From Isurus oxyrinchus (Eukaryota): a stretch of DNA of 64,000 nucleotides. Location: the NCBI GenBank assembly GCA_026770705.1, contig JANJGN010000015.1, positions 118,296,001-118,360,000 of the forward strand, read 5' to 3'. Positions 1 to 59,329 of the stretch are shown one piece after another. Under the pieces are notes generated by a model that was not told where the DNA came from, searched no databases, and saw only the letters and a program-made list of their open reading frames with translations. Made by a program: the position numbers and the translations under genes. The first letter of the stretch is position 1. Each line of letters opens with the position of its first letter.

Positions 1-316
1 AAATTTAAGTTCACTGCTTTTATCATTAAAGAGTTCTAAACCATGGGAACATTTAAAGAATCGACAAATTATGAATTATTTGTAAAATTATAGTTTTGAA
101 TAAGGAGCAAATTACTTATTTTAATTTTAAGCTGAAGTTATGATATTTTAAATCGAGACATACGCGAACAAATTGCTGAACCTGTACATTTAATTTTACT
201 TATGGTGTTCATTTTACCCCTCATAATCGCTCAAGTATATTTCTGATGAGCAGTTTGGTGTTGGGAGTTGGATGCATTCTTTTGTACCCGTGCCTCTGAT
301 CGGGGTCATTGGGGGA

Positions 317-368
317 TTAATTGAGATGAATCGATGCCACGCGTCTGACACGAGCCAGTGAACAGCTG
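317..368 (+). promoter_or_regulatory. bHLH module 1: TAAT site, CACGCG-N5-CACGAG, CAGCTG
   Basis: Motifs at 338, 349 and 363. Confidence 0.5.
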
Positions 369-2239
369 GAGCAGGCAGAGGGTCCAGGAATGAGCGAAAG
401 CAGTCAGCGCAGGGAGCAGCCCCTCTCTACAAGTTCATACCCCTCCCATCCTCTTCTGAAAAGTTCCTTATTCCCATTTCGTTTAGAGAGGTTGTTGTGT
501 CCCAAACAATTTTGGCGTCAGGGTCCCATATGCTCACCTCTCTGGTTGACATGGTGTTTGGGGAACAATTAGACTGACCCGCACGTGATGTACAGATTCG
601 GAAGGAGTTCGGAGCTGGTGTCGCCAGTAGTCAGTCATCAGCAACTGCGTCGAGGTAAGGGCTTCCTCCAAATAAACATAGATTCTTTCCCTTTAACAAT
701 AGGTTTATAGCTTTAAACAGTTTTGTTACGCCATCATTACGATTATTTTGTGATATTTTAATTTTAGTGACTGTAAAATATATTTTAAAGCCATATTAAA
801 GCGCCTTTATATAAATGGACGCCAAAATGCAGGTGTGCACTGTGCTACACTTAAGATTGATTTTTCTAACTGCCCACTCTCTATGAGCATTGATATAGCC
901 CCATTTAATACTGTTTGAGGTCAAATTTACGTCTTAAACTTACATTAGTACACCTTTAGTTTTCTAGCGCGGTATACTGTGTGAACATTATAATTTGTGT
1001 CAATTCTATGCGGTAGAGCAACTGGGCATTCTTTAATGCTGCATCATTATTATTTGGAGTATGTATTATATGTTCTCACAGAAGGCGATGCGTATATTCA
1101 GTTAAACTATTACATACCGGAGGTTGCCAGCATAGAGTATTGAGTAAATTACATGGCCAAAATCAGACACTGTAGTGCACTGTACTAAGAGTGAATTGGC
1201 ATCAGAATATATTGTCATTGTATGTCATCTAATCAGCCCATGTGACTTAATTCAAACACTTGTTAGACTTAAGAAGTGCTCTATGTTGTGTGAAGAAATT
1301 ATGAACTTATTATCGTTTGATGTATTTGCACTGTTATCCATGCCCAGAACACTCCGGAAATAGCATGATATATGTTTCTTTATTCTTATTCCGTTTCCAA
1401 TTATTCGCATTGATTAGATTTTAAATCAGTTATGCGGCTTTGATTCAGTGGGTGATGTCCAGCGGACTGATATAGATGGGAGTTCTTCAGGTAAGAAACA
1501 ATTACAATAGTTGGGTTGAAGGACATATAAAACAGCTTCTTCCTGTGAAAGGATAACAGTCAGAGGATGTTCTCGGTGTGTGATCAAGAAGAGATGTACC
1601 GTGTAAATGTTTTTTTTTATATAAAATAATCAATGCCAATCAAAATAATAGTTTATAGCACCTTGAATCTTCTCAATAAATCACATTTACAAATTAATTA
1701 AAGTATCTTAGGAATAAATGGCGTTTCAAATCAATTCTTGCATTATCTCCCTCGGTAGATTAGATTTGAAATCCCACGTCAGATGTTTTTGAATAATGGG
1801 ATCATTGAGAATGGTTTTCTAGTCCGCTTCCCCATTACACAATTCATTGTACTCTCTGTCCTAGCTCCTGACGGTAAGAAAATCATTAACTCATGCTTGC
1901 TGGTTGACGCGTGCCGCCTTTTTTTTCCCAAATTTTGCTGAGCAGCAGCAGGCCTGGGGAAAGATTGCAGTCAGCGAATGATCTGTTTCCCTACCCGCCT
2001 CTCTCTGTCACTCGATCCTTGCCTATTCATCTCCGCCCTCAGTTGAAGTCCACTTCTTTGTAGGAGTTTATTAAGCTTAACACCAACGGTACAATGGCAT
2101 TAACTGTAAGGTAACACTTGCTGCAGTTTAAAAGCGCCGGAACTCGTGCCAATGCGTGAACGCAGTGGGCCATGTGTGTGAGATGGAAAGTCGAAAGCGA
2201 ACTTCTTTGTAGCTGCGGTTCCAACTTTACGATAATGCA

Positions 2240-2535
2240 AGAATAGGAAGAGAGAGAGAGAGAGAGAAAGAAAACCGGAGAAGTGAAAAAAATAAACACA
2301 ACAGAAAAGGGATGGAGTGAAAGTGTGAAAAAAACTGAATCATAGAAAGAGAGTGAGAAAGAAACTAAACCCAGGAACAGAAGAAGTAAACTGAGAGAGA
2401 GTGGGCAGGACAGAGAGAGAGAGAGAGACAGCAAGGAAAATAACACGGAGAACTTCAGAAAATGAAAAATCCTTCGAGAGAGAGAGAGAGACCGACAGAC
2501 TGCGGGACATCCGGAATAAGGAGACAATCAGAAAA
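2240..2535 (+). repeat. Purine-rich (GA)n low-complexity tract
   Basis: Several (GA)n runs in a strongly A/G-skewed stretch. Confidence 0.85.
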
Positions 2536-2599
2536 ACCTGAACAATCACTGGAATAATTTGTTGGGAAGGGAGACTAAAAACTTGGTCAAGGTCATGGT

Positions 2600-2995
2600 T
2601 TTTTTTTGTCCATTTAGGGGATGTGGGCATCGCTGGCAAGACCAGTATTTGTTGCCCATCCCTAACTGCCCTTGAACTGAATGTCTTGCTAGGCCATTTC
2701 GGAAGGCAGTTAAGAGTCAACCACATCAACCACCATTGGCTGTGGTTCAGGAGTCACATGTAGGCCAGACCAGGTAAGGGCAGCAGATTTCCTTCCCTAA
2801 AGGACATTAGTGAACCAGATGAGTTTTTGCAACAATCGATGGTGGTTTTCATGTCACCATTACTGAGACTAGCTTTATATTCCAGGTTTATTAATTGAAT
2901 TCAAATTTCACCAGCTGTGGTGGGATCTTACTCTGTCCCCCAAGCGTTTGCCTGAGCCTTGGAGCTAGCCCAGTGACGTTAACACTACACCATTG
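2600..2995 (-). mobile_element. Same SINE family
   Basis: Reverse-complement similarity to 12527-12890. Confidence 0.8.
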
Positions 2996-3324
2996 CCCCC
3001 CACCCCCACCCCCACCTCCCCACTTAAAGAATAGTGGGGGGTGGAGAGGTTGAGGAGGGAGTTGCAGGGAATAGGCCTGGGCTGCTGAACTCACAATTCC
3101 CATGGTGGGACAAGGCTGGGATTCAAAAGAGGCCAGATTTAGAGGAGTGGGAAGTGGGGGAGGGTGCTGGTGAGAGTCTAGGGCCGGAGAATATTAAAAA
3201 TACAGATGGATGAGGCCATGATGAAAGGATGTAAACATGAAAATGAAAATTTTAAATTTGAGGTACCAAGGGTATCGGAAACCAATGTCAGTCAGTGAGG
3301 TAAAATCAGGAAATACTGGGAATA

Positions 3325-3935
3325 TTGATGACTGCACAATATTCAGAACCATTCACAACTTCTCAGATACGAAGTAGTCTGTACCTGCATGCAACAAGAC
3401 CTGGTTATTAACTCACCTCCTGACTCCCCAAAGCCTGTCTACCATCTATAAGGCACTAGTCAGGAGTGTGATAGAATACCCTCCACTTGCCTGGATGAGT
3501 GCAGCTCCCAAAACAAGCTCAATGCTATCCAGGGCAAAGCAGCCCACTTGACTGGGACCCCATACACCAACCTCAACATTCACTCCCTCCACCACCAATG
3601 CACAGTGGCAGCAGTGCACACCACCTATAGGATGCACTCCATCAACTTACCAAGGCTCCTTCAACAGCGCCTTCCAAACCCATGACCTCGACTCCCCAGG
3701 AGGACATGGGGGCAGATGCACCACCACCTGCAAGTTGCCCCTCCAAGTCACATACACCATCCTGACTTGGAAGTATATCACCATTCCTTCACTGTCACTG
3801 GGTCAAAATCCTGGAACCCCTTTTCTAACAGCACTGTGGATGTACCTACGCCACCTGGACTGCAGTGGTTAAAAAAGTTGGCCCACTACCATCTTCTTAA
3901 AGACAGTTAGTCAGTGAATCTCACATTCCCATGAA
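3325..3935 (+). mobile_element. Same LINE family, 3' fragment
   Basis: Nucleotide similarity to 28890-29400. Confidence 0.8.
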
Positions 3936-3959
3936 CAAATGGCAAAATAAAACCTCAAG

Positions 3960-4180
3960 AGGCCTGGCAGAACCTGTGGAGAGGGAAACAGGGTTAAGCT
4001 TTCAGGCGATGACCTTCCATCAGAACTGACATTCTGAATTCTGACAAAGGGTCATCGACTGGAAACGTTTATTCTGCTTCTCCTCCCACATGTCCCGTCA
4101 GACTTGTTGAGTATTGTAACATTTGCAGGTTATATTTCACTATTTAATTCAGGTTTCTAGCATCCGCAGTATTTTATTTT
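3960..4180. mobile_element. Two older Penelope-tail fragments in opposite orientations
   Basis: Minus copy CTGATGGAAGGTCATCGCCTGAAAG and plus copy CTGACAAAGGGTCATCGACTGGAAACG, each followed by the family tail. Confidence 0.55.
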
Positions 4181-4632
4181 AATGTTAGGCCAGCAAGGAC
4201 TGGGACCTTGGATTTAGGGTAACACGGGGCAGCAGAGATTGAGATGAGCTGAAGCTGGGGCGTGGGATGTTTGCCAGAGTGGCAGAGTTAAGTGCGGAGA
4301 TGACATAGGCACGGAAGATCAGTGGTAAATAGACTCAGGCGGACAATGTTGCAGAGGTGGAAAAAGGCCACCTTAGCGGTGAAATGGATATGGGGCCAGA
4401 AGATCTGACTGGGAACAGATGAAATGCTGAGGTGTGAACAGTGTGGCCATGGAGCGTGATAATATATCACAGAGTCATAGACTCAGATTTAAAACTGTTA
4501 AAGTCACACTAGCAGATAGACGTGTTATACAGTGTCGTACACACATAACGGTGCCATACAGTTGCGCATTCCCATGTTGTGTCACACAGCCAGTGTTATA
4601 CAGTATCACAGAATTAAGTATGAAACAGTGTG

Positions 4633-4770
4633 AAATAAAAACAAAGAAAACTGCGGATGCTGGAAATCCAAAACAAAAACAGAATTACCTGGAAAAACTC
4701 AGCAGGTCTGGCAGCATCGGCGGAGAAGAAAAGAGTTGACGTTTCGAGTCCTCATGACCCTTCGACAGAA
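4633..4770 (-). mobile_element. Young Penelope-tail-derived short element with hammerhead-like motif and GAAACAGTGTG direct repeats
   Basis: Near-identical to 50287-50420 and (reverse complement) 55795-55927. Direct repeat at 4622-4632 and 4768-4778. Confidence 0.75.
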
Positions 4771-6611
4771 ACAGTGTGGCCTGCTCAGATACAGAAGTGA
4801 TAAAAGTCACACAATGGGGTCTAACGATGCCCTACAGTGTCGCACATCGGATACAGCAGAGTCACACGATCAGTTGCACAGAAGTCATATTGCAGCAGCG
4901 GTAGCAGGAAATGAAGCAAGCATTTGTGAGCATGTTGCTGGAAGTGAAAAGGGGTTTCTTTTTAGCTGAAAGTTAATTCTGAAGACCCAATGCTTCAGAA
5001 AGGATTAAATGGCGCTGGAAGGAAAACCAAGGAAACTTTGACTTCTTAAAACAAAAAAAAAAACAGCCATTTGACTAATTGAAAGTCCTGACATGAAGCA
5101 GGATCTCCTCCAGTGTACAACAGTGACACAAATATTTACAAAGCACCAGGTGCTTGCCCGCTGACCCGATAGGTTTAAATGAGAACACTCCAGGTGATGA
5201 TCATGTGGAGAAGGAAAGGGAAGGGAGTGGAGTATCCATCACTTTGTACGAATTCTATTTATGTCCAATTGGTCTTACATTCCCAGGGTTATATTTGTGC
5301 ATTAAAATTAGTTTTTAGTTCAGTCCCCTCCACACCACCACCCCCACCCCCCCCCCCCCCCCCCCACCCCCACCAAAGTACCCAGTGCCCTGGAGGAAAC
5401 CGTTTGGTGAGTTGAAACACAGACGAGCAGAAATTATTTGACTGGCTTGAAAGGCGCAGGTTTGAAATGTTAAAATGAATTTTTGCCTATGGCGATTGGA
5501 GTCTATTCGGTCTCTTGTGGGATACATTCGGGGCAACAGGAGCCACCCGTTTAACATGGGGAAGAAAACCTAATCAGAGCCAGAGTCTAGTCACTCTGCC
5601 AGGCCAAAGGGAGGTCCGAATAAACCGGGGGCTTTGAATCCATAACAAAGGGGGTTAACTATTACCAGCATTCGCGGTTTACCTGACAACCGAAGATACC
5701 GGAGAATAGCATCGCCCTATTCATAGCTTGTTTCAAATTGGCAAAGACAAGCGAGAAGATTTCGATGACAAGAGGTAAAAGGGGTTATATCACAAACTTT
5801 AGATGTCGGTTTTGTGAGATTAGATTGAGATTCGAAAAGCAAACGCCTCCAGCTTTTAAAAACAGGGAATCTACCGGGGGTCGGGTAGATAGCGCAAGTT
5901 TAAAAAAGGGATGATCTTTCAAATCTTCTCCCCCAAAATAAAGAAGCTACAATGTGCCCCAAACCTCTTGAAAATTGGTTTTCTGATTATGATGCGTGGC
6001 TAAGTCGACGTGGATTGTAATGGGCAGTGCATTTATATCCCAAACAGTTTGGAAGTAGAGGGTCATTTTTTCGATTACTTTTGGTTGAATCCAACTGACA
6101 TCAAATCTGTCCCAGGATGGAAGGACGGCTTCCCAAGCTAAAATCCACGCTATCAGAGCAAAACATCTGCCCCTACAGCCTGCACACAACAGCTTTCTGA
6201 CTTTACATATAGACCTGGATGTCAAAGCATCACCAAATTATACCAAACTTGTACTGAGGGACATAATGCGAAGCTTCTTATAATTAATCGTGCCTTTCCT
6301 AATAGGGACAATTAAAATCAATTAGTTCAAGCATTAAGCCAAAATTTCAAAGCATTATGTGTCCATCTGACTTACTGGGTGATTTAATATCAGCATATTA
6401 AATATTTAGGATGGTCGATTCATAGGATGCTTAATTCAAAACAATTTAATAAAACAAAAATCCCATTTAAAGTATTGCCACTGAATGATCCGATTTTGAA
6501 GTTATATAATGGAATTGAAGTTATCCCCAGATTGTGGTTTATTGAAAACCTTAAGAGTTGACGACATTCTTGTACATTCTCCCTCTCTCTCTCTCTCGGT
6601 CTCTCTGGGAC

Positions 6612-6689
6612 TTATTGAAATGAAAAGCACGCGTCAGGCACGTGTCAGCCTCCGCCTTACCAGATGGGAGCCCCGCAAGTCATCAGATG
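6612..6689 (+). promoter_or_regulatory. bHLH module 2: CACGCG-N5-CACGTG and two CAGATG
   Basis: Motifs at 6628, 6639, 6661 and 6684. Confidence 0.5.
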
Positions 6690-7527
6690 TCGGGAGCAAC
6701 GGCCCAGCCGCTGGAAAGCAGGTTGAGCCCTTCTTTTAACCATATTGATTTTTAATTCGTTTCATGTCACTCGATCAGCGCGAAGCTACTAAGTGCCAGG
6801 TCTGTCTGAAAGATTTCGAGCAAGATGGTGTGGCCACTCCAAGTGCATATCTGTCTTCCACATTTGCAGTATCTACAGTTCTTTGTACTTGGGCATATTC
6901 TGCAGTCCTTGTTTCCAGCCCATTCGTTCATTTTTCATTTTTAAAAAATATGATCTAAAGTCTGGAGCTTCTTAAACCATTTGGCCTCTCTGGCCGCTTT
7001 GTCTTAAAACCTACATCTTTGGTCACCAGTCCTAAAATTTCCTTCTGTGGCTCGGTGCCAATTTTTGTTTGACATCGCTCGGGTGAAGCACCTTGGGACG
7101 TGTTACTACGTTAAAGGCGCTATATAAATGTAAGTTGTTGATGGTGGATTTAATTTTTGTGCGTACCGAAAACGAGATTTTTGATGCCTTGTCACATCCT
7201 CCCAGCTCCCTTGAAATAAAAACTGGGCTCCCTCTGTGGACTTAAAGCGGGCGGCCAGCTTCAGCAAACCTGCCCTGGACCAAACCTGTCCGTTTATCGA
7301 GCGTCGGCCCCAACTCCAGCATGATGTGAGTTTAGGAGAAACTCTGTACATGCTGGAAATGTGAGCTAGAATCTGAGTTCTGGTCGAGACCCACAACCTC
7401 CAACCCCAACCCGTCTCTTCTCTTTCCAGGCGCCAGTGGACAAACTGTGGTGTTTTCTGGTCTTGTCTCGGCACCAAAAAGCTGACAGGCTTTGGAAAGC
7501 AGACGAGTTCCCAAGGAAAAGGGGAAG

Positions 7528-7850
7528 CTTTTTTTTCACCCTTGTCATAGGATGTGGGCGTCACTGGCAAGGCCAGCATTTTCTGCCCATCCCTAATTGC
7601 CCCTTGAACTGAGTGGCTCGCTCAGCCATTTCCAAGGGCAGATAGGAGTCAACAACATTTCTGTGGATCTGGACTCACGTGTAGGCCAGATCAGTTGAGG
7701 ACGGCAGATTTCCTTCCCTCAAGGGCATTAATGAACCAGCTGGGTTTTTATAACAATCAATGATAGTTTCATGGTCAACATTACTGAGACTAAGCTTCAC
7801 ATTCCAACCGCCAGGCTGGGATTTGAACAGTGATATTACCGCTACGCCAC
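7528..7850 (-). mobile_element. Same SINE family
   Basis: Similar to 2600-2995. Confidence 0.8.
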
Positions 7851-9644
7851 TGATGCACAGGGTTATCTTTCCCCCAATTCTACTATTATCCACTAAAGGC
7901 CCGATGCTATTCTTATGATACTTCTTGAAAACTTTCCCATTCATACACATGGTGTCTGAAACTGAACACATCCAGGCAATATACTTGCACGGATATTCTG
8001 AGCTATAGCCCCAAGGGTGTTATTGCAGGAGTCCAACGCTCAGTCTCTCAAGACCTTGGTTACCTTGAGAGCATTGTTGTCCTCCAGACTTCCCTTTCTT
8101 GTCTAAATGGCAGCATCAATGTGTGTTGTCTGTCTGTGTGTGGCTGTCTGTATGGTGTGTGTGTTTTGTTGGGTGGCGGGCGGTCGACGCTTGTGTTCGA
8201 GTAATTATAATTACTTTAGCCCCTCATTCAGCGAGGCTAACGGCGCAAGCTCCAGGAATTTTTGGCGCGGAGTCAATAATGGCCTAAATTGCATATGCTA
8301 TCATTCTCGGAGGCTTCCGCAACTGAGGGGATAGTTGCAACTGCAAAGGCGGGAGCGTTCAAGACATTCTGGGCCAGATGGTAACTTTCCTTACGTTAGG
8401 AAAGTGTGGTGTTTTAGCTTTTGCGAGGGAATGTGGGTGATAACTTGGGATGGAGGCTCTTCTTCCACAGGGTCCTCCATATTTTCAAACTTATGGTTAC
8501 ATTTTAACTTCTTCTGAGGGATGATCTGAGGCATCATTAACCACTGTTAACAGAGACATTCGTTTATTAATTTGCCACTTTGCGCTATTCCTTTCTCTGG
8601 AGTCTGATTGGTTAATGTCGGCCCAATATTACCCCCTTCCCTAATTTTAAGTCACACAATCGTTTCCCTTCGATAACATTTCAGCCCGCCTGCCTGACTG
8701 ACTTTACACTAATACTTAGCAGAAGAAACTCCCTTCTCCAACACGTGAGGAGTTTCTGATAAAGATTAAATTTAAGGTCACCTTATCATAGGAACACGTT
8801 TCTCTCAGCACCTTGGTCCTTGACTGGGTTCTGTGAAAATGCTACAAAAGTAACGAATGCAGGAGAGCGATTCAGGTAGAGACTATTCAGTCAGTGCCCC
8901 AATGTCCTTTCTCCAGCTCAAGGTTCAAAGAAAAATATTGCAAATGTTGGAAACCGCAAAATACAGGAAATGCGCAGGAAGCCAGTCAGCACCTGAAAGG
9001 GAAAGAGACAGGTTAACAGTTCAGGTCCAATGGATTCTGACAAAACGCAAACCAGCTCAATAAGGGAGGATATATTATCTGAATCCGTGCCCATTGCAAG
9101 TGTCTATTGCAAAATCACAGGCCCACCGGGTGTAATTTTCCTTTCACTGATTTAAAAAGAAACGAGAATCAGCTCACAGCCAAGTTTCCAATACTTCCAT
9201 GCCATGATTGCTATTCACCAGCTTCTCATTATTTGATTTGTGATCTTTAGCAACCTCTCCCAGTTTTCACCCTACAGCAACTTTCACTGAGTCTGCCTTT
9301 CACTTGTGTGGGATCTGAACGTCTCATACCTTAGTTACAAACTATTTATGCACTTCATGTTTTCCCTTCCTCACCGTTCTCCTGTCTTCATGATTAATGT
9401 GCTAGTATTTTACTTGTCACACATATTATCCCTTCGTGCTATTATTGCATGCTCATCAAAATGCATCTCAATGGCTCAGCTATTAAATACACTGTTAAAT
9501 GTAGTGTTCAATGTAGTTCTACAGTCCTGAAAAAACTTATGTTTCTTATTTCCTTCCCCAGTTTGCAGATCTGAACCCGGACAGCAGTAAGAATGAAATC
9601 ATTGGCTTCAATGGAGTGGCCATGGAATAAATTAAGATATGAAA

Positions 9645-10082
9645 ATCCAGTGGCTCACTGGTTTTATTTTTCACTGTGCCAGCTTTCCAGTGACCCTCAT
9701 ATTTGCTATGTCTCGCTGGTTTTCACTGTGTCTGCTATCCAGTGGCTCATTAGTTTTTCCTGTGTCTGCTATCCAGTGGCTCTCTGGTTTTTGGTGCCCC
9801 TTCTATACAGTGGCTCACTGGTTTTCAATGCCCCTGCTATCCAGTGGCTCAGTGGTTTTTGATGCCCCTTCTACCCAGTGGCTCACTGGTTTTTGATGCC
9901 CCTGCTATCCAGTGGCTCATTAGTTTTTCCTGTGTTTGCTATCCAGTGGCTCTCTGGTTTTTCCATGTCCCTGCTAACCAGTGGCTCACTGATTTTTGCT
10001 GCACCTGCTATCCAGTGGCTCACTGGTTTTTGCTGCACCTGCTATCCAGTGGCTCACTGGTTTTTGATGCCCCCGCTATCCA
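9645..10082 (+). repeat. 34-bp minisatellite (CTGCTATCCAGTGGCTCACTGGTTTTTGATGCCC), about 12 copies
   Basis: Units start at about 9732, 9766, 9800, 9834, 9868, 9902, 9936, 9971, 10005, 10039, 10073. Confidence 0.93.
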
Positions 10083-10279
10083 TGTGTGAAGACACCAGGT
10101 GAGGAAAGCTTGAACATCAATGCCTCCATGGTTGAATATCCTCTTGACAGTTAGGAGGTTGCTGAAAACAAATGACTCATTGTAAACACACCCCAGAATC
10201 AGTCAGTGCCTTAGTCACTGCAAGAACATGGAGAGGAAAATGGAAAAGTATCACCGCATCATTGAAAGATCTTTGCATC

Positions 10280-10675
10280 AGCTAGAAAGCACCTGCATTT
10301 ATATAACACCTTTCACAAGCTCAGGATGTCCCAGCCAATGAAATTCTTTTGAAGTGCAGTCATTCTTGTAATGCAAGAAACAGCAGCTAATTGCACACTG
10401 CAATGTCCTACAAACAACAATAAAATAATGACAAGCTGATCTGCTTTACTGATTTTGGTTAAGGGATAAATGTTGGTCAGGACACTGGGGAGAAGCCCTG
10501 GACTCTTTCCCTGAACTGTGCTATGGGATCTTTGACATCCCCCTGGGTGAACAGATGGAACCTCAGTTTAATTCACTGTATTGTCAGGCTTGATTTTCTA
10601 CTCAAGCCTCTGCAGTGGAGCTTGAACCCATAATCTCCTAACTGAGAGGCAAGAGTCCTAACAGCTAAGGCTGAA
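10280..10675 (-). mobile_element. Deu-domain SINE (SacSINE1/AmnSINE1-like)
   Basis: Deu-like core AAAGATCCCATAGCAC..CCCAGTGTCCTGACCAACATTTATCCC and L2-like tail GGTGTTATATAAATGCA. Confidence 0.7.
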
Positions 10676-11684
10676 ACCAGTTGTATGTAGTACAGTCATA
10701 AAGGTTGCAAAGGACTGTTTCTCTAATCCACCCCACCCTCCCATGACTAACGCAGTGCATCTTAGAGTTGGCCCCCAACACATACCGGTCCTGGTCCCTA
10801 TAGTCTTTTCCATTTCATTGTGTAATCTGAATATAGGAGCTTCCCTGGGAGATGTCAGGGCAGTTTACTGTTACCTGCCCATTGTAAACAATTCCTTCCC
10901 TATGTGTAAGTGGAAGCCTCCACTCAACATCTCCCTTGAAGATATAGCAGAAATTACTAACTTGGTCTTTGGGAATATGCTGGCTTTCATTTTCTGTTTG
11001 AGTGAAAATGTTTTATATTATTTAAGCACTTGTGTGGTGAACATTTCTTAACTGTTTGAAAAATGTAAAGTATTTTTCCTACAGAATTCTTGTTGAAACT
11101 GTTGCCAGGCACTATCATTTGCAAACAACTTTGTTTACTTGGTGCCCCACTCAACTTTATTTTTTGCTGAGAAAATTTTGCCCCCAACTTTGCCATTTCT
11201 CCCTTCTGTGACCTCCATGCGATCATTGGTGCACCCATTGCTACCAAACTCTGCAGTACAAGAGCCCAACAGGAAATATCCATTGCGAGGAGACATGATG
11301 GATTATGAAGTATTTATTAGATAATAGCCCAGTTTGGTAATAAAAAGCCTTCAGGAAATGGAAGGGGAGACACAGCAAAATAATACGGAATAAGTGGGGC
11401 AAATACTGGCTGGCCCTGTGAAATTGGCCCAGAAAGGAGATTTTAAACTATTGAAATTAAAATAAATTCTAACCCTTAAATGGAAACATAAATGTCATTT
11501 TATCAACAAATTTGATAATTCTAAAGTTCAAAACAAGCAGAACTAACCCAGCTGACATTTAAGTTGCCATGTTACGATTCTTATTAAATGTTATCTTCTT
11601 CCTCTTGGATTGAGTTAAGTGTAAATGTGCAGATGCACACTCTCTCCTCTCTCTCTCTGTGGGCTCATGGTCTCTCTATTGGAA

Positions 11685-11745
11685 TAATTAAGTTCAATTG
11701 AAGCCACGTGCCCTGCACAAGCCAGGAGCAGCTGCACCAGATGGG
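11685..11745 (+). promoter_or_regulatory. bHLH module 3: TAATTA, CACGTG-N5-CACAAG, CAGCTG, CAGATG
   Basis: Motifs at 11705, 11716, 11729 and 11738. Confidence 0.5.
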
Positions 11746-12284
11746 GGTCCCAGGGAGCATCCAAACAGCCTCGACAGGCTGACTGAAAATTACCATTGAC
11801 AGTTCCCCTTGTTAATCGGAACTAATTTCTGTCTCCTGGCACGTGCCATTTCTTCTCATTGTCTGACAACAGATGGTTCCTGCCCCTGAAATTCAATACA
11901 ATAATCAGATCCGAGTCAATGTTACATTTCGTCTGAATCTCTTTGTTCATTCACTTATTTTCTTGCAACAAATAGAATGTTATTCTACATTGCTCCTCTT
12001 TTATTACTCTTAATGGGCTTAAAGCCATGACCTTCTGACTCTGCTTGGAGACTGCTACCCACTAAGCCACAGAAATCTTTTCCATTTGGCAGATGCTTTT
12101 TTTTTAAATGAAGAACATATTCTGTTAAGATTCCCCCTTCCATGATTCCCACTGACATTTGTTTCATCAGAAAATCACATGTCATTTGACTATTGCACTG
12201 CTGGAGGTATTTCGTGAATTGTGACCTCTAGTGGCAGAAAATGAGATTGCGGCATATCCTTGACTAGTTTCTATCTTGGGCTAG

Positions 12285-13500
12285 ATTACAAGGAATGTAC
12301 AGTGCAGAAACAGGCCATTCAGCCCACCTAATTTGTGCTGGTAATTATCCTCTGTACAAGTCTGCTCCCATGTCTTGTATCTCATCTCCGCCTGTCGGTC
12401 TATCTTTCTATTTCCTTTCATTTCGTGTGTTGTCTCACTCATCATGTGCCACTTGTGGTATGCAAATTCCATATTCTAATCACTCTCTGAGTCAAGAAAT
12501 TTCTCCTTATTTTCCTGTGCCACCGGGGATGTGGTGGCGCAGTGGTATTGTCAGCTAGTATTCCAGAGACCCAGGGTAATGCTCTGGGGATCTGGGTTGG
12601 AATTCCACCACGGCAGATGGTGAAATTTGAATTCAATAAAAATCTGGAATTAAAAGACTAATAGTGACTGTGAAACCATTGTCGATTGTTGTAAAAACCC
12701 ATCTGGTTCACTGACGTCCTTTAAAGAAGGAAATCTGCTGGATTTACCTGGTCTGGCCTACATGTGACTCCACACCTACAGCACTGTGATTGACTCTTAA
12801 AATGTCCTCTGAACAAGGGCAATTAGCGATGGGCAATAAATGCTGGCCTAGCCATCAATGCCTACATCCAGTGAATGAATAAAAAAAAAAATAGATTTAT
12901 TAGTAACTATACCATGTATTTATGGCTCCCTAGGTTTGGTTTTTCCCATAAATGAAAGCATTCTCTCCACATCTACTCCGTCCAACATTCATAATTTTAA
13001 AGGCCTCTACATCTTAATTTGTCTAAAGAACAAAAAGCTCCAACCTGTTCCATTGTTCCCAATAACTGTAATCTCTCAGTTCTAGGACCATCCTTGTAAA
13101 TCTCTTTCACACCTTCTTGAGTATTTCAATGTCCTTTTTGTCAATTGGAGAACAGAACCATACACAGTACTCTGTGTTATCTAACAAGGGTCCCATACAA
13201 GTTAAGCATAACTTTACTGCTTATGAATTCAGTACGTCTAGAAATAAATCTGTGTCTTGTCAGCATTTTTAAATGCTTTGCTGACTTGCAATGCTGTTTT
13301 TAATGATCTGTTCATCTGTGCCTCCAGATCCCTTTGCTCATCTATCCCACTAAGTTTCTAATTTTCTAAGGTATAGGCAATGTTTTTCCTACCAAAACTT
13401 CACACCTCACTATTATCGATGTTAAAATTTGCTGGCTACTTAACTGCCCAATCTACAAATTTTGTGATGTCTTCATGTATTATGTTGCATTCTTCGACAG
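12285..13500 (-). mobile_element. Old CR1 fragment interrupted by a SINE at 12527-12890
   Basis: RNFLTQRVIRIWN and the CR1 3' hairpin (GGCTGAATGGCCTG). Confidence 0.65.
12527..12890 (+). mobile_element. tRNA-head SINE sharing its body and tail with the second LINE family
   Basis: A-box-like TGGCGCAGTGG and B-box-like GGTTGGAATTCC. Tail GGGCAATTAGCGATGGGCAATAAATGCTGGCC followed by poly-A. Confidence 0.8.
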
Positions 13501-41664: not shown

Positions 41665-42272
41665 ATCCTATTAGTATTTCTGCATCATCTTCATACGTGC
41701 CTTCATCTTTCTAGCACAGGCTTTAATCTCCGACTTCTTTTTGACTTCACTATTGGCCAGATTTCTCTCAGATGCAAGCTCAACTTGTCTGAACTCAGTG
41801 ACTGAGTCTCCCAAAATTTCATTATCTGTCTGATTCTTGGAAAATTCTGTGATTTGCTTCCAAAGCCTCTTTGGCTTTATTTAGCTGATTCTTCAGCTCT
41901 TCCATCTCTTTTTTGTATTGTTTGCTGCCTCATGGAAGATTGAACATTGTTGCATCTCCTCTGCCAACTCATTCTTCAGTTTGTTCAGAGAAGTGTTGAA
42001 TTCTTTCTGTTTCTCTTCATACTTTTCCAGAGGTACAAACATTGACTTGAGGGAACCTTGTCGTGTGTGAAGATCTTTCAACAGGTTTTCTTTTTCCCTG
42101 AGAAGGTTGTCCATCTCATCTCGAACTCTGTCATCAAGCAGGGTCTCATTGAGTTCCTTCTGCTGGTCTTCCAAGTTTGGTTTAGGACAGCCTACATTTC
42201 TTCAGGTTGTTGAGTCCTTACACACTCCTTTTCCAAAACAGCAATGCTTCCAGCTTCCTTTTGGATTCCCAG
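41665..42272 (-). pseudogene. Captured host coiled-coil gene fragment (UACA/RAI14/ANKRD24-family-like) inside the Gypsy pol region
   Basis: EMDNLLREKENLLKDL..GSLKSMFVPLEKYEEKQKEFNTSLNKLKNELAEEMQQC resembles the UACA coiled coil as recalled (EMEKLLLENDSLSKDVSRLETVFVPPEKHEKE..LKSNIVELKKQLSELKKKC). Frameshifted continuations on both sides. Confidence 0.6.
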
Positions 42273-57322: not shown

Positions 57323-57616
57323 ATGGTTTTGGATCGCGCTCTGGTCGCTGCCAAGAACGGCGATCTCCAAGCGCTGCAAGAGTTACAGAAGCAGGGGTTG
57401 ATCCATCAGAAAGTGACCGACCATCTCGGAGCTTCTCCGGTCCATCACGCCGCCCGCTCCGGCAAACTGAACGCTCTGAAATTCCTGGTGGACGAAGCGA
57501 AACTCCCCGGGAACAAGAAAGCCAAGAACGGGGCAACTCCGGCGCACGACGCGGCGGCCACCGGCAATTTGGTCTGTTTGCAGTGGCTGCTGAGCTCAGG
57601 GGGCTGTCAGTTACAG
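57323..57616 (+). CDS. ESPN: Espin, first coding exon (N-terminal ankyrin repeats)
   Basis: MVLDRALVAAKNGDLQ...PVHHAARSGKLNALKFLVDEAKLP...[32 protein letters not shown] closely matches the vertebrate espin N-terminus as recalled (MALEQALQAARQGEL...PVHHAARAGKLHCLRFL...[32 protein letters not shown]). It ends at a phase-0 donor CAG|GTAAGG after 98 codons. ESPNL paralogy is not formally excluded. Confidence 0.92.
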
Positions 57617-57644
57617 GTAAGGAGGAAATGTGGCTGGTGCCCCG

Positions 57645-57975
57645 GGCGGGGGCAATGGGGCTGGTACTGGGGACTGCAGCTGGGGGGCAGAGGAGCTGGA
57701 GGCAATGGGGCAGGAGCTGGGGGTAATGGGGCAGGAGCTGGGGGTAATGGGGCAGGAGCTGGGTACTGGAGCTGGGGGCAGAGGAGCTGGGGGCAGAGGA
57801 GCTGGAGGCAATGGGGCAGGAGCTGGGGGTAATGGGGCAGGAACTGGGTACTGGAGCTGGGGGCAGAGGAGCTGGGGTCAGAGGAGCTGGAGGCAATGGG
57901 GCAGAGGAGCTGGAGGTAATGTGGCAGGAGTTAGGGGTAATGGGGCAGGAGCTGGAACGGGAGCTGGGGGCAGTG
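57645..57975 (+). repeat. G-rich minisatellite (~21-bp units such as GGGGCAGGAGCTGGGGGTAAT) at the start of ESPN intron 1
   Basis: Directly visible tandem variants of GGAGCTGGGGG/GGCAATGGGGCA. Confidence 0.9.
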
Positions 57976-59329
57976 AGGTGGGCGTGTGGAAAGGTTCTGG
58001 GGCACTGGGGCTGCGGACGTGAGCAGTGGGGCATAGATGGAGAAGAGTAGTGGGGTTGGCTGCAGTGAGACTTGGGTGTGGGGAAGGGGATAGCGGGGCT
58101 GGGGTTGGGGCACTATAGCTTGGGGCTGGGAGAGAGGGTCTGGGAGCTGGAAACTGATTGCTGGAATATGGCTCACTGGATGGGGAGATGTCACTCAAAC
58201 TTTTCCAAAAGGCCTCTGATCATAGGAGTTAGCACCTATGGATGGTGATGGATCTATTGATGGGAATAACTCTCTACACAGTTCTAATGTTTCCCAATTA
58301 TCATAATCACGCTGCTTATAATTCTGAGAACAGTAAAATCATATGCTGAGTAAAGGCGAATTGTTACCATTTAAACCCAAACGCTAAGATTTGAATGTGC
58401 TTCATAATAATTTTAACTGTGTCATGAATGATTTTTTTCAATGTACAACTAGTAGAGCATGAATTGTCTTGACAGAGCCTATGTGAACTTCAGAAAGAGT
58501 TGGGAACATTAAAAGTTGGGTAGTTATTCACAGACTGGCTTCTCCTGTTAATCTCATTTCAATGGATTAGTGTTTGCCTTACAAAGTACAAAACAAATAC
58601 AATACCTTTCACAAGATTCAGACTTTCGGAGCCTGTTGCTATAGGATCTGAGCTCCTACACTGCAGTAAAATCTGGGAAAAATTGAGTAACTGCCCCTCT
58701 TTATTCCTTGTGCAATCTCCTGCTGCTTCCCATTATTCTTTATGTTACCTTCTCTTGCATTTCATTGACCCTGGCACAGTTTGATCCTGTGTTGCATTTT
58801 TCTGGGTGTAATTGCCTTTTGGAATCAATTTCCCTATGTAATTCCTTTTTCTATCCTGTTGATCTCCATGTAATCCTTTCTGAATTTTATTAGTCTCCTT
58901 GTGACTCCTCCAGCTGCCTTGCAAATGTTTCCTCCTACCTAATTTGTGACCCCAAACAACTTTCTATTATTCTTTGTACAATTTTCTTTTATAACCAGTT
59001 AATCAGCTCCTTTATCCTCTCCTACCTGTCCCTTATTTTATGCAGTTCGATCCTTCAATCTTTCTTCCTACCCCTCTTCCTATCCCTTTGTAATTTCCTC
59101 CTGCATTTCCACTTTCTCTTTGAACCTCCCTCTCACCTTCTGCTTCTTTTCACTGAAACATCTTTATGTCTTTATTATTCTCTGCCTTCCTCCTCCCTCG
59201 GTTATTTATTCTGTAACTACCGCCTACAACAAAGAGGGCTAGGGGGAATCATTGAAGTTAAATAGAAAGATTATAAAAAAAAACAGGTTTTAGTACAAGA
59301 ATATGGACTGATTATAAATTAGTATAACG

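Follow-up and report, generated by a model that had tools for sequence, protein, structure and literature searches.

Enhancers with P+R logic, combining proneural E-boxes with sites for bHLH repressors, are described in Drosophila for neur (neur4D and neur1B), phyl, nvy, and sens, and the fly proneural sites are defined in the same source as RCAGSTG or RCAGATG (PMC6070291). Class C, class B, and N-box sites are the classes described for HES proteins, and the optimal E(spl)/Hey site is tggCACGTGcca (PMC1950541). Two E-box-like motifs lying exactly 5 bp apart define the carbohydrate response element (ChoRE), in which a spacer of 6 bp strongly impairs the response and one of 4 bp abolishes it (PMC1761440); its consensus is given as CAYGNG-n5-CNCRTG (PMC3141076). 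Tetramers of bHLH proteins bind tandem E-boxes, as named in one review for TWIST1, MYOD1, NEUROD2, Myc-Max, and MLXIPL-MLX, with no HES/HEY protein among those listed there (PMC8431614), and our literature search for tandem HES sites found no paper on such pairs. Shadow enhancers form another class of multiple elements, with evidence of duplication reported for 18.3% of the sets in the fly and 33.9% in the mouse (PMC13345019).

The window, i.e. the whole 64-kb stretch of Isurus oxyrinchus DNA analysed here, contains three copies of a short module with paired CAC-type hexamers followed by E-boxes (Table 1). The pattern CACRNG-N5-CACRNG, which was picked post hoc, matches three times, at 338, 6628, and 11705, always on the forward strand; in a comparison with shuffled sequence, proposed by the sequence-only reading and run on the scale of the window, the mean was 0.28 and three matches were reached in 0/100 shuffles. 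Spacers of 0 to 15 bases other than 5 gave at most one match each, and a longer consensus with up to three mismatches allowed again retrieved just the three known copies. The motifs thus lie exactly where that reading had placed them, in the same orientation and as the sole matches in 64 kb, and its description of the surroundings is largely correct: a TAAT or TTATTG is found 16–20 bp 5' of every pair, (CT)n precedes copies 2 and 3, and at standard sensitivity no copy coincides with sequence that recurs in other parts of the window. GGGAGCA does occur downstream of all copies, but out of register, 57, 47, and 31 bp past the pair, and owing to these varying distances it was rejected as a homologous part of the module. 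A CpG-retaining setting applies to copies 1 and 2 but not to copy 3, which lies in CpG-poor DNA; the observed/expected CpG ratio is 0.71 at 1–2550, 0.54 at 4120–9600, 0.19 at 10600–12250, and 0.23 at 12251–56800. The low ratio around copy 3 was counted against an enhancer function.

Table 1. Positions of the modules, their sites, and neighbouring features in the window
Feature	Position	Strand	Remarks
CpG-retaining domain with copies 1 and 2	1..9600	.	CpG observed/expected
Module copy 1	265..400 (approximate extent of homology)	+	Homology between copies
Copy 1 paired sites, CACGCG-N5-CACGAG	338..354	+	Class C and N-box; 1 mismatch to the ChoRE consensus
Copy 1 E-box, CAGCTG	363..368	+	8 bp 3' of the pair
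Lone class C site, HES-type flanks	1906..1915	-	
Module copy 2, (CT)n inside	6555..6690	+	Homology between copies
Copy 2 paired sites, CACGCG-N5-CACGTG	6628..6644	+	Class C and class B; sole exact match to the ChoRE consensus in the window
Copy 2 E-boxes, CAGATG (starts 6661 and 6684)	6661..6689	+	
Module copy 3, (CT)n inside	11634..11765	+	Homology between copies
Copy 3 paired sites, CACGTG-N5-CACAAG	11705..11721	+	Class B and N-box; 1 mismatch to the ChoRE consensus
Copy 3 E-boxes, CAGCTG (11729) and CAGATG (11738)	11729..11743	+	
Lone palindromic TGGCACGTGCCA	11837..11848	.	Same sequence as the published E(spl)/Hey optimum; 116 bp past copy 3
E-box AACAGATGG	11868..11876	+	20 bp after the lone site at 11837
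ESPN (espin) first coding exon	57323..57616	+	Ankyrin repeats

The three copies are diverged duplicates of one 100–150-bp non-coding module, homologous beyond the motifs, and not three separate uses of one enhancer grammar, as they had been interpreted. In leave-one-out nhmmer searches the third copy was recovered from the other two at E 1.4e-12, 3.6e-8, and 2.2e-8, and with the motif hexamers neutralised the copy–copy alignments still beat 500, 500, and 496 of 500 shuffles. The copies are non-independent data. Overall identity between them is 54–58% across aligned 150-bp stretches, the motif core being the best-kept part of the module, with the CpG retained in five of the six hexamers; invariant columns amount to 9/12 in the hexamers versus 42/119 elsewhere (Fisher p 0.009, a value inflated by ascertainment). 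A fourth copy better than E 0.11 was not found in the window with nhmmer, nor did any further copy turn up in the remaining 52 kb on the right; a larger duplicated unit around the copies was looked for and not found, and the long intervals following them show no mutual homology at E up to 0.5. Scanning metagenomes with the module pattern gave 0 matches. A search among Hi-C libraries with non-repeat sequence from around copy 2 retrieved no reads of other species, an outcome that has no weight for or against conservation. A weak fourth similarity, with the motifs absent, is located at about 5506–5574 (E 0.11–0.38).

Both the flanks of the paired sites and two lone HES-type sites in their neighbourhood support the reading of the pairs as HES/HEY sites. 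All six paired hexamers are of class C, class B, or the N-box type, and the bHLH-repressor core CACGYG with HES/Hey flanks is carried by all three copies. At least three of the six flank bases of the E(spl)/Hey optimum are present in 6/6 paired sites versus 12/65 other such hexamers, the means being 3.67 and 1.57; in copies 1, 2, and 3, respectively, 8, 7, and 7 of 12 flank bases match tgg/cca (p 0.002–0.011). Outside the modules GNCACGYGNC, a 10-mer which we take to be the pattern of a HES-type lone site, occurs twice against 0.06 expected (0/400 local shuffles). The lone site at 11837 is an inverted match, in 12 of 14 bases, to the second site of copy 3 with its flank, and could have arisen from this site by partial, inverted copying.

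The E-boxes had been considered proneural. By the fly definitions RCAGSTG/RCAGATG, applied here to a shark, copies 1 and 3 contain a match; in copy 2 the two CAGATG motifs are preceded by C and T and thereby fail the strict RCAGATG. E-boxes of both types are kept in copy 3, whereas copy 1 has CAGCTG alone and copy 2 has CAGATG alone, in two places, and these differences fit partly redundant copies. Proneural-type E-boxes are not enriched outside the modules (2 versus 0.63 expected; 49/400 shuffles).

Of the two genes proposed for the locus, espin is confirmed, while no HES gene was seen within the window. The espin exon shows 77–91% identity to its nine top chondrichthyan hits, seven of which are named espin, versus 59–65% to chondrichthyan espin-like proteins, and on these grounds an ESPNL identity of the gene was rejected; the modules lie 46–57 kb upstream of this exon. 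Scanning all 64 kb for peptide motifs revealed no HES-like exon, and a metagenome scan with espin exon 1 returned 10 loci, all coding for distant ankyrin proteins (26–41% identity), with no vertebrate locus. HES2 is considered as a target because of the Acot7–Hes2–Espn synteny in the mouse (PMC9796729), no HES gene lying inside the window. Hes2 and Espin are both among the genes induced by Six1/Eya1 in Xenopus placodes (PMC5035141). A 2022 paper that calls HES2 function unknown also reports that Hes2 mRNA could not be detected in mouse hair cells (PMC9796729), so that in the mouse HES2 as the target does not go with a role in hair cells; in a review HES2 is given as apparently Notch-independent (PMC1950541).

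We regard the three modules, with a confidence slightly better than even, as candidate duplicated enhancers switched on by proneural proteins and off by HES proteins. The earlier proposal of redundant enhancers is thereby kept as to site identity and espin, but not as to an independently repeated grammar, and it had overlooked the ChoRE geometry of the pairs. One ancestral module of 100–150 bp, presumably cis-regulatory, was duplicated twice locally, as shown by the homology, the same orientation, and the presence of three copies within 12 kb with none farther right; its core was preserved while the DNA between the copies lost all detectable similarity. Each copy would most likely work as an enhancer with P+R logic, in which a dimer of a proneural bHLH protein (of the Atoh1, Neurog, Ascl1, or NeuroD type) and an E-protein would activate through CAGCTG or CAGATG, and two HES/HEY repressor dimers on the paired sites, 7–16 bp from the activator site, would silence the module in Notch-receiving or HES-expressing cells. 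Since the paired sites are 11 bp apart, they lie on the same helix face. The likeliest target would be a HES2 gene to the left of the window, as the mouse synteny and the CpG-retaining domain at 1–9.6 kb suggest, with espin in sensory cells as the alternative.

The pairs could also be ChoREs, each bound by two ChREBP-Mlx or MondoA-Mlx heterodimers as a tetramer for a glucose-dependent activation of HES2, ACOT7, or ESPN, with the adjoining E-box for a tissue factor; this seems unlikely. Two E-box-like hexamers with a 5-bp spacer are present in 3/3 copies, and spacer and hexamers fit ChoREs and HES pairs equally well, which counts against the enhancer reading, as do the absence of HES proteins from the tetramer list and of papers on tandem HES sites. 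Copy 2 is the only exact match to CAYGNG-n5-CNCRTG in the window (0.16 expected; at least one in 14/100 shuffles), the count of 2 for this palindromic pattern being a single site scored on both strands; copies 1 and 3 each deviate from it at one position, but matches of this quality are common, with 9 in the window versus 4.4 expected. The second half of copy 1, CACGAG, is that of TXNIP ChoRE-a (PMC2791861), and ATTGG is located 30 bp (copy 1) and 27 bp (copy 3) upstream, but is missing within 60 bp upstream of copy 2. Moreover, the refined ChoRE ChIP motif ChBM1 (CABGTG-nnCnG-nGnSTG) is absent, with 3, 2, and 3 best-strand mismatches in copies 1–3, whereas the flanks of the pairs agree with the E(spl)/Hey optimum, and neither of the lone HES-type sites (1906 and 11837) has a partner at 5 bp. 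Among 1153 human ChREBP peaks, a single one is assigned to HES2, at a distance of 5279 bp from the start of the gene; judging from the coordinates, it would lie 0.6–0.8 kb past the HES2 3' end, away from ESPN, and therefore probably not at the orthologous place. The human list comprises 783 target genes, from which ESPN and ACOT7 are absent, and about 4% of genes carry such a peak. Two supplements of a zebrafish MondoA study were searched for hes2, espn, and acot7, and none of the three is in them. It is rather improbable, too, that two HES/HEY dimers bind the 17-bp pair cooperatively and under a constraint on spacing, which would make it the repressor counterpart of the ChoRE. Such a pair might serve also as a shared switch based on competition of HES repressors with glucose-sensing MondoA/ChREBP-Mlx tetramers, which would couple the HES2/espin sensory programme to the state of sugar supply and would be kept in triplicate in sharks.

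Homology alone accounts for the common spacing and orientation without selection, and the copies could be neutral relics, either old local duplicates or pieces of a low-copy ancient repeat, with unselected motifs inherited from one ancestor. The copy–copy identity of just 54–58% and the motif-free similarity at about 5506–5574 agree with such an origin, but the preferential conservation of the motif core and of the CpG in its hexamers, the absence of copies from the rightmost 52 kb, and the lack of inverted repeats that would frame the modules in register make it quite unlikely. (CT)n has homology on either side and, being internal to the module, is not a retroposon tail; neither dispersed copies nor terminal repeats nor a tail, as would mark a transposable element, were seen within the window. 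Promoters that had been duplicated, serving either non-coding transcripts or tandem genes with decayed bodies, would explain the same orientation and the distances of 5–6 kb, as well as the strong splice-donor-like sites at 655, 1491, and 1874 on the forward strand of the CpG-rich DNA following copy 1 (versus 0.14 per kb on this strand elsewhere in the window). They are nevertheless very unlikely, as no paralogous exons were found after copies 2 and 3, and no Pfam HLH or Orange domain in the 241 open frames of at least 28 residues outside repeats in 1–12600, which gave only five weak sub-threshold Pfam hits. The lack of these domains also led to the rejection of a coding origin; translation of 1–12000 in six frames with stops as X, a search run without a positive control, gave one Pfam hit at E 0.21 and no HLH or Orange. 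A structured RNA or miRNA cluster was rejected on fold z-scores of +0.09 to +1.91 (6/6 folds), and no Rfam match covers the paired sites.

If duplicated enhancers they are, the three natural variants would form an allelic series for on/off control of the HES2/espin locus, allowing one to ask whether HES dimers read fixed-spacing pairs and whether a HES pair can be a ChoRE; should the modules lack either conservation or activity, they would be an ordinary local duplication. The P+R enhancers of the fly share with the shark modules proneural E-boxes beside CACGYG bHLH-repressor sites, and there is more than one element per gene, overlapping function being described in the fly (PMC6070291). The shark modules differ from those of the fly in the fixed 11-bp pairing of their repressor sites, in being paralogous in sequence, and in occurring in a vertebrate; their enhancer role is predicted. 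The ChoREs of TXNIP, L-PK, and S14, bound by ChREBP/MondoA-Mlx tetramers, likewise consist of two CAC-type hexamers with a 5-bp spacer (PMC1761440, PMC3141076, PMC2791861), and the modules match their consensus with 0 (copy 2), 1, and 1 mismatches; nevertheless, in spacer and flanks the modules agree with the E(spl)/Hey optimum and not with ChBM1, and class A E-boxes adjoin them. Tetramers on tandem E-boxes resemble the arrangement proposed for the module pairs, with one dimer on each of two neighbouring hexamers separated by about one turn (PMC8431614), the cooperativity of HES/HEY proteins on the module pairs being suggested by the spacing. Finally, shadow enhancers born by duplication are, similarly to the modules, several homologous elements per locus with binding sites kept (PMC13345019); it is sequence homology that the shark modules share, their common target and overlapping activity being putative.

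The three modules are non-coding, and each carries a pair of CAC-type hexamers placed 11 bp start-to-start and followed by E-boxes. The three motif strings given for them by the sequence-only reading are all present in the window. The pattern CACRNG-N5-CACRNG, chosen post hoc, has just three matches in the whole window, all on the plus strand, a number reached by 0/100 shuffled sequences; spacers of 0 to 15 other than 5 give at most one match each, and allowing as many as three mismatches to a longer consensus retrieves the same three sites and no others. In the alignment, CAGCTG is common to copies 1 and 3 and CAGATG to copies 2 and 3. The downstream GGGAGCA, regarded as a further shared element, is not in register among the copies, and the CpG-retaining surroundings apply to copies 1 and 2 (0.71 and 0.54) but not to copy 3, lying in CpG-poor DNA (0.19). 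The AT-rich block next to copy 2 could be a homeodomain-site part of the same candidate enhancer.

Features of the window (positions and strand as in the window)
Feature	Position	Strand	Description
Copy 1	265-400	+	pair at 338; E-box 8 bp after pair
Copy 2	6555-6690	+	pair at 6628; E-boxes 16 and 39 bp after pair
Copy 3	11634-11765	+	pair at 11705; E-boxes 7 and 16 bp after pair
Weak module similarity	5506-5574	+	no paired sites; E 0.11-0.38
Inverted-repeat pairs	474-568		19 nt at 74% and 14 nt at 86%, ~120 bp downstream of copy 1; nesting is not that of a simple hairpin
Exon-like series	487-2110	+	CpG-rich non-repeat DNA after copy 1; donor-like sites 655, 1491, 1874 (strong), the last preceded by a possible 9-nt micro-exon with pyrimidine-rich acceptor
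Lone HES-flanked site	1906
AT-rich non-repeat stretch	6230-6560		many TAAT/ATTA cores, immediately upstream of copy 2
Minisatellite	9645-10082		units of roughly 34 bp
Lone E(spl)/Hey optimum	11837		exact copy, then AACAGATGG
Open frame	41896-42201	-	102 residues, coiled-coil character, inside LTR retrotransposon region (~40.4-43.8 kb)
espin first coding exon	57323-57616
G-rich tandem repeat	57640-58050	+	right behind espin exon 1 donor

Judged by their similarity, the modules all descend from a single ancestral sequence. In sensitive BLAST the copies align at 64-69% identity across 86-118 columns (54-58% over the full 150-bp alignment), and even once their hexamers and E-boxes are neutralised they outscore 500, 500, and 496 of 500 shuffles. 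A two-copy profile recovers the left-out third copy at E 1.4e-12, 3.6e-8, or 2.2e-8, while its best further match, near 5506, has E 0.11 and is possibly a decayed fourth copy, or chance. Given the single ancestor, the common spacing and orientation represent one inherited event, not three, so that of the "three copies of one grammar" the shared arrangement is real but its independent recurrence is not. The long intervals after the copies show no mutual similarity at E up to 0.5, and no inverted repeats in register were found at the module borders. Invariant columns comprise 9/12 in the hexamers, by which the modules had been found, versus 42/119 elsewhere. That the modules are a neutral relic or a low-copy repeat is rather improbable. 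RNA folding of the modules is no better than that of shuffles (z-scores positive, 6/6), and no Rfam family reaches threshold against them.

For E(spl)/Hey proteins the published optimal site is tggCACGTGcca (PMC1950541). At least three of its six flank bases accompany 6/6 paired sites versus 12/65 other hexamers of these classes. The lone exact copy may, from its sequence, derive from copy 3 via inversion. With a 10-mer that we take to represent HES-type sites, 2 were counted outside the modules versus 0.06 expected (0/400 local shuffles). With a motif presumed to be proneural, enrichment of E-boxes depends on counting in the modules (5 versus 0.66 expected; outside them 2 versus 0.63, 49/400 shuffles). 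The flanks support the proposed HES/HEY identity of the paired sites; the copy 2 E-boxes fall short of strict fly proneural definitions (PMC6070291).

The pair geometry is also that of the published carbohydrate response element (ChoRE), two CAC-type hexamers strictly 5 bp apart (PMC1761440), and copy 2, alone in the window, matches the consensus CAYGNG-n5-CNCRTG (PMC3141076) exactly, copies 1 and 3 being among 9 one-mismatch matches. The pairs are nevertheless unlikely to be ChoREs: their flanks fit the E(spl)/Hey optimum, and copies 1, 2, and 3 miss the refined ChREBP motif by 3, 2, and 3 positions. A supplement table gives HES2 as the assigned gene of a human ChREBP peak; the table's sign convention we derived from presumed strands of comparison genes. 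By that convention, the peak coordinates, and HES2 length and strand (PMC3396596), the peak would lie just past the HES2 3' end, away from ESPN. Duplicated promoters are a very unlikely explanation of the modules; the exon-like series after copy 1, in whose frames Pfam finds no match, may belong to a non-coding transcript or represent distant 5' exons. The remainder of the probability falls to other bHLH proteins reading the pair.

Repeats within the window cover ~31% of the chondrichthyan DNA there, and espin is the sole host gene identified. Its exon shares 77-91% identity with the nine best chondrichthyan hits, seven of which carry the name espin, versus 59-65% with chondrichthyan espin-like proteins, and is therefore ESPN. 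Metagenome scans yielded no locus from a vertebrate, and a search of Hi-C sequencing libraries with non-repeat sequence around copy 2 returned no run, which speaks neither way on conservation. The open frame lies in a region that we take, from its frames, to be a Gypsy-like retrotransposon; its atlas matches are assorted chordate coiled-coil fragments of low recognition value, so that capture from a host gene is no more than a lead. Neither 241 open frames of 1-12600, nor six-frame translation of 1-12000 across stop codons (no positive control), nor peptide motifs searched along the entire window revealed a HES coding exon. HES2 probably lies left of the window, because the mouse locus has Hes2 and the Acot7 5' end no more than ~38 kb upstream of Espn (PMC9796729) and a CpG-retaining domain spans 1-9.6 kb.

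On balance, somewhat better than evenly, we favour duplicated enhancers, proneural-on and HES/HEY-off, for HES2 or, less likely, espin. A proneural dimer would activate each module and two adjacent HES/HEY dimers would repress it via the pair. Sequence, homology, non-coding nature, and the content of motifs and flanks are demonstrated; selection, binding, cooperativity, target, and tissue are what we infer. Xenopus Hes2 and Espin are both among Six1/Eya1-induced placodal genes (PMC5035141); mouse Hes2 is reported not to be expressed in hair cells (PMC9796729).

No description of these elements or of a fixed 11-bp HES pair was found in a search of the HES2/espin-enhancer, HES2-ChREBP/MondoA, and tandem-HES-site literature that reached few subscription papers, and the bHLH tetramers that a review lists for tandem E-boxes include no HES protein (PMC8431614). 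The logic of proneural plus bHLH-repressor (P+R) enhancers, ChoREs, and redundant enhancers born by duplication are all already known (PMC13345019, PMC7093719). The triplicated module is a real candidate enhancer, proposed to combine proneural activation with HES/HEY-type repression on the model of P+R enhancers in the fly (PMC6070291).
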